Shown: positions 61,255 through 64,000 of the stretch, one piece after another
How the letters are laid out: the number at the start of each line of letters is the position of its first letter
Position numbering within the stretch: position 1 is the stretch's first letter
Assembly: GCA_038882655.1 (NCBI GenBank)
Contig: JAVZNT010000002.1
Coordinates: forward strand, 32,001 to 96,000
Length of the DNA: 64,000 nucleotides
Direction: 5' to 3'
Origin: Candidatus Bathyarchaeia archaeon
Lineage (GTDB): Archaea > Thermoproteota > Bathyarchaeia > Bathyarchaeales > Bathycorpusculaceae
Program-made: the position numbers and the translations under genes
Notes under the pieces: generated by a model
Told to the model about the DNA's origin: nothing
The model's input: the letters and a program-made list of their open reading frames with translations, nothing else
The model's database searches: none

Positions 61255-61444
61255 GTGAATGGTTATAAAGTTTTTGAAAACGTTATTGAAAAATTAATTA
61301 AAAATTAAGCCTTCAGCTGTAAATAAGCAACTAAAAACCTATAAAAAATTTTTAGAGCTGAAATTTTTCTCTTAAAAATGCTTATTACCAAAAACAGCCA
61401 CTGAATATAGCTGCAAACAAGCAAAGGGAACAGTGACAGCAAAC

Positions 61445-63274
61445 ATGTGTGGAATATTTGGCTGTATTTTAAAGGAGGGCGCCGCTGCACCGCTAATACA
61501 TCACGCCCTTAGAAGGCTTGAATACCGTGGCTACGACTCCGTAGGTGAAGCAACAATCCACGAAGGAAAACTCTACATTAAAAAGGACAGCGGAAAAATA
61601 GACGACGTTCACAAAATCCATAACCTTGACGACTTGCCCGGTTTTATAGGTATAGGTCACACGAGATGGGCTACACATGGGGCGCCATTAATGATTAACG
61701 CGCACCCCCATGTTGATTGCAGCGGTCAAATAGCTGTAGTCCATAATGGGATTATTGAGAACTTCGCGGAACTGAAGCTTGAACTTGAAGGAAAAGGACA
61801 TACTTTCCAGTCCAGAACGGATACAGAAGTTATAGCCCACCTTATTGAGGAGGCGTTTAAAACAAATCCTTCTTTTGGGCTTGTGGATGCTGTTCTGGCG
61901 GCTTTGCAGAGTCTGGACGGTTCCTATGCGATTGCTGTTATTTCGCCAAAAGAACCAGACAAAATAGTTTGCGCTAGACACGAAAGCCCGCTTGTTGTAG
62001 GAATTGGAGAAAACGCGCTTTATTGCGCCTCGGACATTCCAGCTTTTTTACCATTAACCAATAAGGCGGTAATAATCGAAGACGGAGAGCTGGTAACCCT
62101 ATCTTTTGAAGGTCTTGAAATTAAAAGAATTGCAGACCTAAGCCCTGTCATCCGGGAGCCAAAGCTTATCGACTGGACTCCTGAAATGGCTGTTAAGCAA
62201 GGCTATCCCCACTTCATGTTGAAGGAAATCCATGAGCAACCCGTATGTTTACGAAACACTTTGAGACTGCAGGAGCATTATCTTGATTTGATGGCGACGT
62301 TCTTGGATCGCGCTAAAGAAGTGTTCCTTGTGGCTTGTGGCACATCATATCATGCTTGTTTGGCAGCATCCTATATGTTTTCTAAACTCGCTTTTCTAGC
62401 TACATATCCAGTAATAGCCTCAGAATTCATCGAGCAACACGGAAAATCAGTAAACATCGACAGCACCATCTTGGCTGTAAGTCAATCAGGCGAAACAGCA
62501 GACACGCTTGCCGCAGTAAATGCTGCCCGCCAAAGAGCAGCAACGGTTCTCGGGCTTACAAACGTTATCGGCTCAACACTAACAAGGGTTTCACGAGTCT
62601 ACATCAGCCAGCAGTCCGGTCCCGAAATCGGTGTAGCTGCAACCAAAACCTTCACTTCGCAGCTTTCGGTTCTCGCCCAGCTTGCGCTAAGGCTTGCAAA
62701 GAAGAGGGGAAAAATTTCTCAGGATGAAATGGACTTTATAGATGCGAAGTTAAAGAAGCTTCCAGAAATCGTGGAAACCGTAATCACCACACAAGAGGAG
62801 AAAGTAAAGAGCATAGCGAAAAAGTACAAGGATGCAAAGGTTTTCTTCTTTTTAGGACGGGGTATAAGCACAGCCACAGCATATGAAGGTAGACTTAAAC
62901 TTATGGAAATAGCCTACATCCCGTCAATTGCTTTTCCAGCTGGTGAAAGCAAACACGGACCGATAAGCCTCGTTGAAGAAGGGTTCCCAGCGGTTTTCAT
63001 ATGTCCCAAAGACGATACGCATAAGACCATTATAGGGAACATTATGGAGATGAAAGCCAGAGGAGCCTCAATAATAGCCATCATTGAAGAAGGTGACGAG
63101 GAAGTCAAAAGGCTAGCGGACGATTATGTTGAAGCGCCAAAGGGCATACCGGACGTTTTGTCACCCATACCCTTCGCTGTTCCACTGCAGCTCTTGGCCT
63201 ATTACATGGCTGTTGAAAGGGGACACGACCCTGATCAGCCTAGAAACCTAGCAAAATCTGTGACCGTAAAGTAG
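61445..63274 (+). CDS. glmS: Glutamine-fructose-6-phosphate transaminase (isomerizing)
   Basis: MCGIFG, LEYRGYDS, GHTRWATHG, SQSGETAD, KHGP, PRNLAKSVT. Confidence 0.97.
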   Translation: MCGIFGCILKEGAAAPLIHHALRRLEYRGYDSVGEATIHEGKLYIKKDSGKIDDVHKIHNLDDLPGFIGIGHTRWATHGAPLMINAHPHVDCSGQIAVVHNGIIENFAELKLELEGKGHTFQSRTDTEVIAHLIEEAFKTNPSFGLVDAVLAALQSLDGSYAIAVISPKEPDKIVCARHESPLVVGIGENALYCASDIPAFLPLTNKAVIIEDGELVTLSFEGLEIKRIADLSPVIREPKLIDWTPEMAVKQGYPHFMLKEIHEQPVCLRNTLRLQEHYLDLMATFLDRAKEVFLVACGTSYHACLAASYMFSKLAFLATYPVIASEFIEQHGKSVNIDSTILAVSQSGETADTLAAVNAARQRAATVLGLTNVIGSTLTRVSRVYISQQSGPEIGVAATKTFTSQLSVLAQLALRLAKKRGKISQDEMDFIDAKLKKLPEIVETVITTQEEKVKSIAKKYKDAKVFFFLGRGISTATAYEGRLKLMEIAYIPSIAFPAGESKHGPISLVEEGFPAVFICPKDDTHKTIIGNIMEMKARGASIIAIIEEGDEEVKRLADDYVEAPKGIPDVLSPIPFAVPLQLLAYYMAVERGHDPDQPRNLAKSVTVK

Positions 63275-63342: not shown

Positions 63343-64000
63343 TTGGAGGTAGACTGGGAACGGCTAATCGAGAATCTGATAAAAGAGGGCGTACTCCGCT
63401 CCCAAAAAGTGATTAAGGCGATGCGCAAAGTGCCTCGAACTAAGTTTCTGCCAGAAAACATGCGATCCTACAGCACTGTAGACACGCCTCTTCCAATTGG
63501 TTTTGGGCAGACGGTTTCAGCGCCACATAGCCTCGGCTTTCAGCCCGGCTAGGCGAAACATGGTTGCAATAATGAATGAAGCCCTTCAATTGGAAGTGGG
63601 CGACAAAGTCCTCGAAGTGGGGGCAGGTTCAGGCTGGCATGCCGCCACAATAGCTGAAATAGTGGCGCCAAGCGAAGCGCCTAGAAGCGAATGGGGACAC
63701 GTCTACACGGTCGAAATAATTGAGGGACTGGCGGAATTCGCAAGAAGAAACATAATGAAAGCAGGATACGGTGACCGAGTCACAATAGTCTGCAGGGACG
63801 GCTCCATGGGCTACCCAGAAAAAGCGCCATACGACAAAATAGTTGTTACAGCAGCAGCCCCAGACATACCAAAACCCCTAGTCGAACAGCTGAAAAACGG
63901 CGGAGTAATGCTTATACCCATTGGAAGCATGCACCTATTCCAAAGCTTGATAAAAGTTATGAAAAGCGCTGATGGAAAAATTAGGCAAGAAAATCTCGGT
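63343..64000 (+). CDS. pcm: Protein-L-isoaspartate O-methyltransferase, interrupted by a 31-nt insertion (exon 1 about 63343-63526; exon 2 from 63558 past the window end)
   Basis: Exon 1: VPR..F, DTPLPIGFGQTVSAP. Exon 2: HMVAIMNEAL, VLEVGAGSGW, DGSMGY, APYDKIVVTAA, QLK.GG. Confidence 0.93.
63527..63557 (+). other. Putative bulge-helix-bulge (BHB) mRNA intron in pcm
   Basis: CGCC(63521-24)/GGCG(63552-55) 4-bp central helix; 3-nt bulges ACA and AAA; intron stem TAGCC/GGCTA; excision restores CCA-CAC-ATG. Confidence 0.85.

Follow-up and report, generated by a model that had tools for sequence, protein, structure and literature searches.

The DNA stretch analyzed here, referred to as the window, comprises 64,000 nucleotides (nt) of a metagenome-assembled genome (MAG) of a hot-spring organism, Candidatus Bathyarchaeia archaeon (GenBank assembly GCA_038882655.1, contig JAVZNT010000002.1, positions 32,001 to 96,000 of the forward strand); positions given below are those of the window. 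Between glmS (61433-63274) and the window end lies pcm, the gene for protein-L-isoaspartate O-methyltransferase (PIMT), which is divided, on the forward strand, into two halves that occupy different reading frames. The first of these, designated exon 1 (63343..63526), has its start at TTG 63343 or at ATG 63307 and contains the coding sequence for the N-terminal portion of PIMT as far as ..GQTVSAP, plus the first two bases of the subsequent His codon; the second, designated exon 2 (63558..64000), opens with AC, which finishes the His codon, followed by ATG 63560, and includes the S-adenosylmethionine (SAM)-binding motif. The two halves are separated by 31 nt, the predicted intron (63527..63557). 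An earlier note on this sequence had claimed that the unspliced message stops at UAG 63550 after about 69 codons, before the SAM-binding motif, and that exon 2 carries an ATG at 63560, and both statements hold. The first frame runs to a TAG at 63550-63552 inside the intron, which is 69 codons from TTG 63343, 81 codons from ATG 63307 and 7 codons past the His codon, and the SAM motif VLEVGAGSG of exon 2 is located beyond this stop. The second frame is open through the window end and 16 further codons, for a total of 162 amino acids (aa).

Comparison with the Pfam PCMT profile (PF01135; curated cut-off, 20.3 bits) revealed no loss of profile positions at the break. The translation of 63343-63528 matches positions 4-60 (E 6.9e-15, 55.8 bits) and the translation of 63560-63997 matches positions 61-196 (E 3.7e-40, 138.4 bits), such that excision of the 31 nt joins profile positions 60 and 61 in frame; in the genome search, the match of the second half spans positions 59-208, and thus the match extends to position 208 of the 210, a full-length family match. 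A second true pcm gene was not found in the PF01135 search of the genome, the three other matches scoring just 23-32 bits. In conjunction with the predicted RNA fold and the comparison of relatives described below, these observations suggest that the sole pcm gene probably holds a 31-nt intron of the bulge-helix-bulge (BHB) type typical of tRNAs, located within the conserved motif S-A-P-H|M-V-A and removed by RNA splicing.

In the genus, family and order of the window genome, 41 genomes were searched, with that genome included, and the pcm gene was found in 40 of them. Among the 30 pcm loci from these genomes that were compared, 25 contain an insert at the same codon and 5 do not; a scan of the GTDB species genomes added 80 loci from MAGs labeled Bathyarchaeia or Bathyarchaeota or from genomes labeled 'uncultured archaeon'. 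After the removal of duplicates, the set consists of 94 unique pcm genes, 83 with an insert of 28-40 nt at the same site and 11 intronless. Pairwise dN/dS values were obtained for 92 of the 94 genes (two were excluded on account of a short 5' flank) and are nearly the same in the two groups: 0.12 for exon 1 and 0.07 for exon 2 in the intron-bearing genes, and 0.12 and 0.05, respectively, in the intronless ones. By this measure, both pcm exons are under purifying selection, with no sign of relaxation in either, and therefore each half appears to be translated in its own frame in all these lineages. The claim that both exons are intact is borne out by the same values, around 0.1 on both sides, and by the continuity of the Pfam matches. 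An automated gene call of pcm would yield a broken gene, as the earlier note had anticipated in predicting a split gene or pseudogene call, and such a call is what a disabling insert or an assembly error would produce as well. An explanation along these lines is nevertheless extremely improbable, given that the same insert is present in 83 independently assembled relatives, with dN/dS of around 0.1 on both of its sides, and that the genome possesses no other pcm gene.

Predicted fold and its conservation among relatives

The central element of the predicted fold is a helix of 4 base pairs (bp), H, formed by CGCC at the end of exon 1 (63521..63524), within the Ala-Pro codons, and GGCG inside the intron (63552..63555). 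This helix is flanked by two 3-nt bulges, B1 (ACA, 63525..63527), which is unpaired in the minimum free energy (MFE) fold, and B2 (AAA, 63556..63558). On the intron side, the fold continues into an inner stem-loop, h' (63528..63551), in which UAGCC (63528-63532) pairs with GGCUA (63547-63551) around a small apical hairpin (GGCU-UUC-AGCC) in the MFE fold; on the exon side, there is a single conserved outer pair, h, between G63520 and C63559, followed by mismatches. The MFE fold of the pcm region recovers H, B1 and h'. Thus, both exon-intron borders display the two 3-nt bulges and the 4-bp central helix that define archaeal BHB introns.

EndA, the tRNA splicing endonuclease, cuts after the second base of each bulge, as worked out from the canonical tRNA 37/38 layout. 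Cuts at these points, that is, after 63526 in B1 and after 63557 in B2, would excise 63527-63557, exactly 31 nt, and the joined exons would read GCG CCA CAC AUG GUU, which translates into the uninterrupted family motif ...S-A-P-H-M-V-A...; the predicted spliced junction is ...GCGCCAC|ACATGGTT.... The BHB geometry places the intron at 63527-63557 (cuts AC|A and AA|A) instead of 63529-63559; both placements remove 31 nt and yield the same protein motif.

The elements of this fold are conserved among the intron-bearing pcm genes to a high degree. All four pairs of the central helix are retained in 83 of the 83 genes, with one double change (CACC/GGUG, in L058), and so are the first three pairs of the inner stem, with the changes UA to CG (6), AU to GC (8) and GC to AU (2); the inner stem consists of 5-6 bp, and all six pairs show compensatory changes. 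B1 is ACA in 82 of the 83 genes, and B2 conforms to A-N-A in all of them (AAA in 67, AGA in 13, AUA in 2 and ACA in 1). The outer pair is G-C in 80 of 81 distinct sequences and G-U in the remaining one, and the positions outside the G63520-C63559 pair show no pairing among the intron-bearing genes. The covariation alignment included 82 of the 83 sequences (L009, a duplicate of L008, was dropped), with 81 distinct rows. In this alignment, 96.4% of the cells are paired, and 7 of the 11 pairs have changed on both sides; none of 500 shuffles attained the observed values of pairing and covariation, and sliding the 3' partners by 1-3 columns reduced the pairing to 11-44%. The pattern of helix covariation in the aligned introns thus reads as unambiguous despite the kinship among the sequences.

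The imprint of the RNA structure extends into the coding sequence. The triplet of codons GCG-CCA-CAU is present in 76 of the 83 intron-bearing genes, to be compared with seven different triplets among the 11 intronless genes. The Ala codon is GCG in 82 of the 83, even though this genome uses GCG less often than any other Ala codon (2290 of 15,946 Ala codons in long open reading frames (ORFs)). The His codon, for its part, varies at the third base in step with the intron base that pairs with it just before the central helix (U-A in 77 genes, C-G in 6). Judging from these patterns, the synonymous sites of exon 1 are constrained by RNA structure.

The lengths of the inserts bear on the possibility that the reading frame is restored by the ribosome, through a programmed frameshift or translational bypass, rather than by splicing. 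The ACAU sequences present at both borders (63525-63528 and 63558-63561) loosely resemble take-off and landing sites; however, after a landing on the second CAU the next codons read would be GGU UGC, in the wrong frame, and bypass via these repeats was rejected for this reason. More generally, the insert length modulo 3 equals 2 in 39 sequences, 1 in 38 and 0 in 6, and is mixed even inside the genus, and therefore no single ribosomal shift could serve close relatives that require different ones; furthermore, the unspliced frame meets a stop within 1-16 codons in 83 of the 83 intron-bearing genes. We accordingly assign recoding next to no probability.

A second alternative to splicing is a split enzyme, whereby an exon-1 peptide of about 70-80 aa and the 162-aa protein initiated at ATG 63560 would assemble without any joining of the RNA. 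Such an arrangement would be compatible with the ATG at the beginning of exon 2 and with the purifying selection on both ORFs, but the ATG in question encodes the conserved Met of SAPH-M-VA and is equally present in the intronless genes. Moreover, a split enzyme requires neither a BHB nor pairing between exon and spacer at synonymous codons, nor compensatory changes; no strong Shine-Dalgarno-like motif was seen before ATG 63560, where the paired GGCG is located instead; and the break falls inside a conserved motif, between Pfam positions 60 and 61. Overall, this possibility appears very improbable, and an intron that is removed from the pcm pre-mRNA remains the preferred explanation.

Splicing machinery, sequencing reads and possible regulation

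The genome that contains the window encodes both a splicing endonuclease and the RtcB ligase, as expected of a host of BHB introns. Two EndA paralogs, both with a PF01974 domain, were identified. The first, of 185 aa (G000:C4:39988-40545, forward strand; L117:1228-1785), retains the Tyr, His and Lys of the catalytic triad, which we take to be Tyr115/His125/Lys156, and aligns over its whole length with the Sulfolobus tokodaii enzyme (2cv8, E 5e-45) and likewise with the A. pernix and P. aerophilum catalytic subunits. The second, of 186 aa (G000:C3:68252-68812, reverse strand; L118:1471-2031), has a Thr at the His position and is nearest to the M. jannaschii EndA. Among solved structures, the best relatives of the two paralogs are thus crenarchaeal enzymes and the EndA of M. 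jannaschii. With one paralog that possesses the triad and one that lacks the His, the EndA apparently belongs to the (alpha-beta)2 type, composed of a catalytic alpha subunit and a non-catalytic paralog; the putative beta subunit, that is, the copy on contig C3, is full-length. RtcB is represented by one PF01139 gene that is uninterrupted. The (alpha-beta)2 and epsilon2 forms of EndA have been described as cleaving relaxed motifs (PMC6379350), and the two-subunit type has been linked to the splicing of the cbf5 pre-mRNA (PMC10485636).

Combining the fold with the machinery, the following sequence of events can be proposed. In the pre-mRNA, CGCC of exon 1 would base-pair with the GGCG situated at the intron's 3' end, giving rise to a helix flanked by two 3-nt bulges and the inner stem; the splicing endonuclease, apparently (alpha-beta)2, would cut after the second base of each bulge; and RtcB would ligate the exons into ...GCG CCA CAC AUG GUU..., so that full-length PIMT would be encoded by the spliced mRNA only. 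We infer that the cleavage and ligation of the pcm intron occur in vivo. The proposal of the earlier note that the output of PIMT depends on splicing is well supported by the comparison of sequences, which brings together the reading frame, the BHB shape, the covariation, and the presence of EndA and RtcB.

In a search of sequencing runs, the pcm stretch was detected in X1 and X2, two hot-spring libraries of metatranscriptomic source and whole-genome shotgun strategy that are marked 'probably DNA', in the form of short contigs only. One X2 contig joins 63526 to 63558 (L001 1526 to 1558), leaving out precisely the 31 nt of the predicted intron; the shorter side of this contig comprises 28 letters, at a likeness threshold of 90%. 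The joined contig may be DNA of a relative and is compatible with splicing, without being a proof of it. Contigs from both libraries (L001:1483-1577) also hold a 32-nt variant of the intron, with an extra T at L001 1546, and therefore strains or species with introns of different length coexist in those samples.

Several observations weigh against the splicing interpretation. The outer helix is a single conserved G-C, which closes the 3' bulge only weakly and leaves the motif short of a strict hBHBh'. Taken as a whole, the fold of 81 nt has a stability no greater than that of shuffled sequences (z -0.57); given this unexceptional folding energy, the case for a BHB rests on geometry and comparison. 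The pcm relatives are not independent, and the shuffle statistics are accordingly overstated. The X2 library is marked 'RNA? (probably DNA)', and the CACATG junction of the joined contig is shared by the intronless relatives. No reads or contigs on the pcm stretch were found in X3, which alone is recorded as raw-read RNA and of which about 12% was examined, or in run X4, and the search found no run recorded as RNA that contains the pcm stretch. Finally, the status of pcm as the only such case in this genome, discussed below, derives from a MAG that is 84% complete and from scans with strict motifs, in which relaxed motifs could be missed because the tRNA introns resolved here have little or no inner stem.

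Beyond the dependence on splicing, the earlier note raised the possibility of a switch, in which the spliced fraction varies with temperature, stress, or the activity of EndA and RtcB, and the production of PIMT is tuned post-transcriptionally. The removal of the intron would be obligatory for expression, so that any change in splicing efficiency would alter the output of PIMT; the weak outer helix, with its single G-C, could render the 3' bulge sensitive to conditions; and PIMT is a damage-repair enzyme, for which a coupling to stress is plausible. Regulation is nevertheless unlikely: the need to remain spliceable fully accounts for the conservation of the BHB, the stability of the stem segment is similar across the relatives (mean MFE -18.1, sd 1.8 kcal/mol), and 11 of the 94 relatives manage without the intron. 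Given that pcm lacks the intron in some lineages under the same selection on the protein, the presumed gate is, on this comparison, dispensable. A more specific version, in which the closure of the 3' bulge by one G-C would let temperature or the load of tRNA splicing set the cuttable fraction, and in which further introns with relaxed motifs would exist in the class, seems to us slightly less probable still. If it were true, PIMT synthesis would be tied to heat stress or to the capacity of the cell for RNA processing, and archaea would thereby have a counterpart of HAC1/XBP1 splicing. On the simplest view, the insertion in pcm is specific to the lineage and constitutively spliced; it is old in one order of Bathyarchaeia and was precisely lost several times, and its structure is retained since disruption of the BHB would leave the gene inactive.

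Intron history and known counterparts

When 92 of the proteins were placed on a quick maximum-likelihood tree, the intronless genes were scattered over several places inside intron-bearing groups; the best tree requires 6 intron changes, although the well-supported branches alone force only 1. Of the 11 intronless genes, 10 (L023, L024, L026, L029, L034, L070, L072, L078, L080 and L104) have CAC-AUG where the intron would have been, which is the junction predicted by the BHB cut. The intron-bearing genes use CAT in 77 of 83 cases, and in the genome as a whole the two His codons are used at about 1:1 (1772 CAU and 1839 CAC). The presence of CAC-AUG in the intronless genes fits intron loss via a spliced copy, although it is not a proof, and the independent events are few.

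The spread of the intron was further assessed with an exon-anchored intron signature, a pattern from which divergent variants would escape, run on 150 additional genomes sampled evenly from the class. One match each was obtained in 10 of the 150 genomes, namely in 7 of 15 from the family of the window, in 2 genomes from other families of the order and in one genome outside the order, which brings the tally with the window genome to 11 of 151, at one match per genome; the reversed signature, used as a control, gave no matches in the 151 class-level genomes. The match outside the order (G089:C75:3020-3061; family code f20, 1 of 7 genomes sampled) has a GC-rich inner stem, and could reflect either an older origin of the pcm intron or gene transfer. 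The neighbors of pcm are glmS and genes for a PALP enzyme, FEN1, EF-1 beta and CDC48; no homing endonuclease is encoded within the 31-nt intron or among these neighbors, which sets it apart from mobile introns of the homing-endonuclease type.

The pcm intron can be compared with several known systems. A cbf5 pre-mRNA intron of Desulfurococcales and Sulfolobales was reportedly described by Watanabe 2002 and Yoshinari 2006. With this intron, the one in pcm shares its short length, BHB type and location within a protein-coding gene in the TACK archaea, a two-subunit EndA in the hosts (here read from sequence), a lineage-specific spread with apparent precise losses, and the potential to be mistaken for a frameshift or a split gene. 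The differences are in the gene, given that pcm encodes a protein-repair methyltransferase and cbf5 an RNA-modifying enzyme, and in the host, which in the present case belongs to the class Bathyarchaeia, whereas the cbf5 intron is found in Desulfurococcales and Sulfolobales (Yokobori 2009, PMC2738675). The cbf5 motif has been called 'more relaxed' than the tRNA BHB in a 2023 review (PMC10485636), whereas the pcm intron has canonical 3-nt bulges and a 4-bp helix, and only its outer helix is minimal. The other archaeal case, the HVO_1309 mRNA of Haloferax volcanii, is cut by EndA (Schwarz 2020, PMC7714728; PMC10485636) and shares with pcm the use of an mRNA as EndA substrate with a spliced product, reported for HVO_1309 and predicted for pcm; its host, however, is a euryarchaeon with a homodimeric EndA.

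Canonical pre-tRNA BHBs consist of two 3-nt bulges with a 4-bp helix between them (PMC6379350), and the pcm intron shares this layout at the exon-intron borders as well as the enzymes, EndA and RtcB. In contrast to the pre-tRNA introns, the substrate in pcm is an mRNA, and the outer helix consists of 1 bp in place of the anticodon stem; most of the stability in pcm is held by the inner stem, whereas the tRNA introns resolved in this genome show the reverse, with a long outer helix. In eukaryotes, the unconventional splicing of HAC1/XBP1 is carried out by IRE1 and RtcB (PMC13149111), and here the shared features are a short mRNA intron, a protein endonuclease acting with an RtcB-type ligase, and a change of reading frame, which for pcm is predicted; the nuclease and the RNA motif differ, and regulation has been demonstrated for HAC1/XBP1 alone.

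The 2023 review lists just two archaeal mRNAs, cbf5 and HVO_1309, as spliced by the tRNA endonuclease, and more are expected (PMC10485636). No published pcm intron or mRNA intron of Bathyarchaeia was found in a literature search that left most subscription journals outside its scope. The pcm gene would thus add a third gene, in a different archaeal class, to the EndA-spliced mRNAs, with unusually good comparative support that comprises 83 variants, compensatory changes reaching into synonymous exon sites, and natural intronless controls. In practical terms, pcm can be expected to appear in the annotation of many Bathyarchaeia MAGs as a pseudogene or as two ORFs, and metabolic reconstructions may wrongly score protein repair as absent. 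The pcm intron also offers a compact natural substrate, of about 40 nt, for studying the outer-helix needs of the (alpha-beta)2 EndA.

Search for further introns in the genome

The earlier note also envisaged a wider set of hidden mRNA introns in this lineage. Both strands of the 27 contigs of the genome were scanned for BHB motifs that, once excised, would leave two open frames, each at least 40 codons long, fused into one, with the unspliced frame stopping in or just after the insert; the flanks were scored by a codon-usage model, and an identical pipeline with a mock pairing rule served as the control. Both scans required a 4-bp Watson-Crick central helix, 3-nt bulges and at least 4 bp in one flanking helix: scan A called for an inner stem of at least 4 bp and an intron of 14-150 nt next to the four Watson-Crick pairs of the central helix, and scan B for an outer helix of at least 4 bp and an intron of 10-100 nt. 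The pcm intron was recovered. Scan A yielded 15,294 motifs with the real rule and 11,123 with the mock rule, of which 960 and 706, respectively, passed the frame-fusion test; with both coding scores >3 and an intron of <=60 nt, 16 real and 14 mock candidates remained, and with both scores >2 and an intron of <=100 nt, 70 and 47. Scan B, at both coding scores >2 and an intron of <=60 nt, gave 32 real and 25 mock candidates. The raw motif counts already differ about 1.38-fold between the real and mock rules, and therefore there is no excess of candidates.

Pfam profiles were compared with 20 of the 21 non-pcm candidates of scan A (<=60 nt, scores >2); the one left out, on contig C18, is flanked by open frames of 1109 aa and 1278 aa. 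A single Pfam family continuing across the junction was found in none of the 20 candidates. In 9 of the 20, different families are present on each side, typically with the upstream profile ending and the downstream one starting at position 1-4, as expected of a gene boundary; 6 of the 20 have a Pfam match on one side only, and 5 have no match. The cbf5 gene is uninterrupted, with the TruB_N matches contained in one 295-aa open frame devoid of stops, so that an intron of the cbf5 type is lacking, and no interruption was found in rtcB, metK or the carB ATP-grasp domain in this genome. The expectation of a wider set of mRNA introns is thus not supported: within an 84%-complete MAG and strict motif definitions, the pcm intron appears isolated in this genome, with no hidden set of introns behind it so far as the scans show.

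The tRNA introns were considered as a positive control for the scans, for which splicing and rescanning proved too noisy to yield a sensitivity figure. ARAGORN predicted introns in 7 of 26 tRNA genes (on contigs C1, C6, C7, C8, C11, C18 and C24), with borders that do not fit a BHB. In two tRNA genes, those for tRNA-Leu(CAA) on C18 and for a 94-nt tRNA-Met on C15, the latter without an intron according to ARAGORN, we identified a 4-bp central helix accompanied by a long outer helix and a short or almost absent inner helix.

A further locus resembles a split gene. An ORF at G000:C1:117573-118417 (L125) encodes a product whose match to Pfam DUF1616 begins midway through the profile (positions 159-269 of 307). 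It is preceded by an ORF of 151 codons that matches no Pfam family, and the two are separated by an AT-rich, BHB-like spacer of 42 nt with stops inside it. The arrangement could represent a second split gene or else a normal boundary between genes, given the GAGGGTG box and the TTG located in the spacer.

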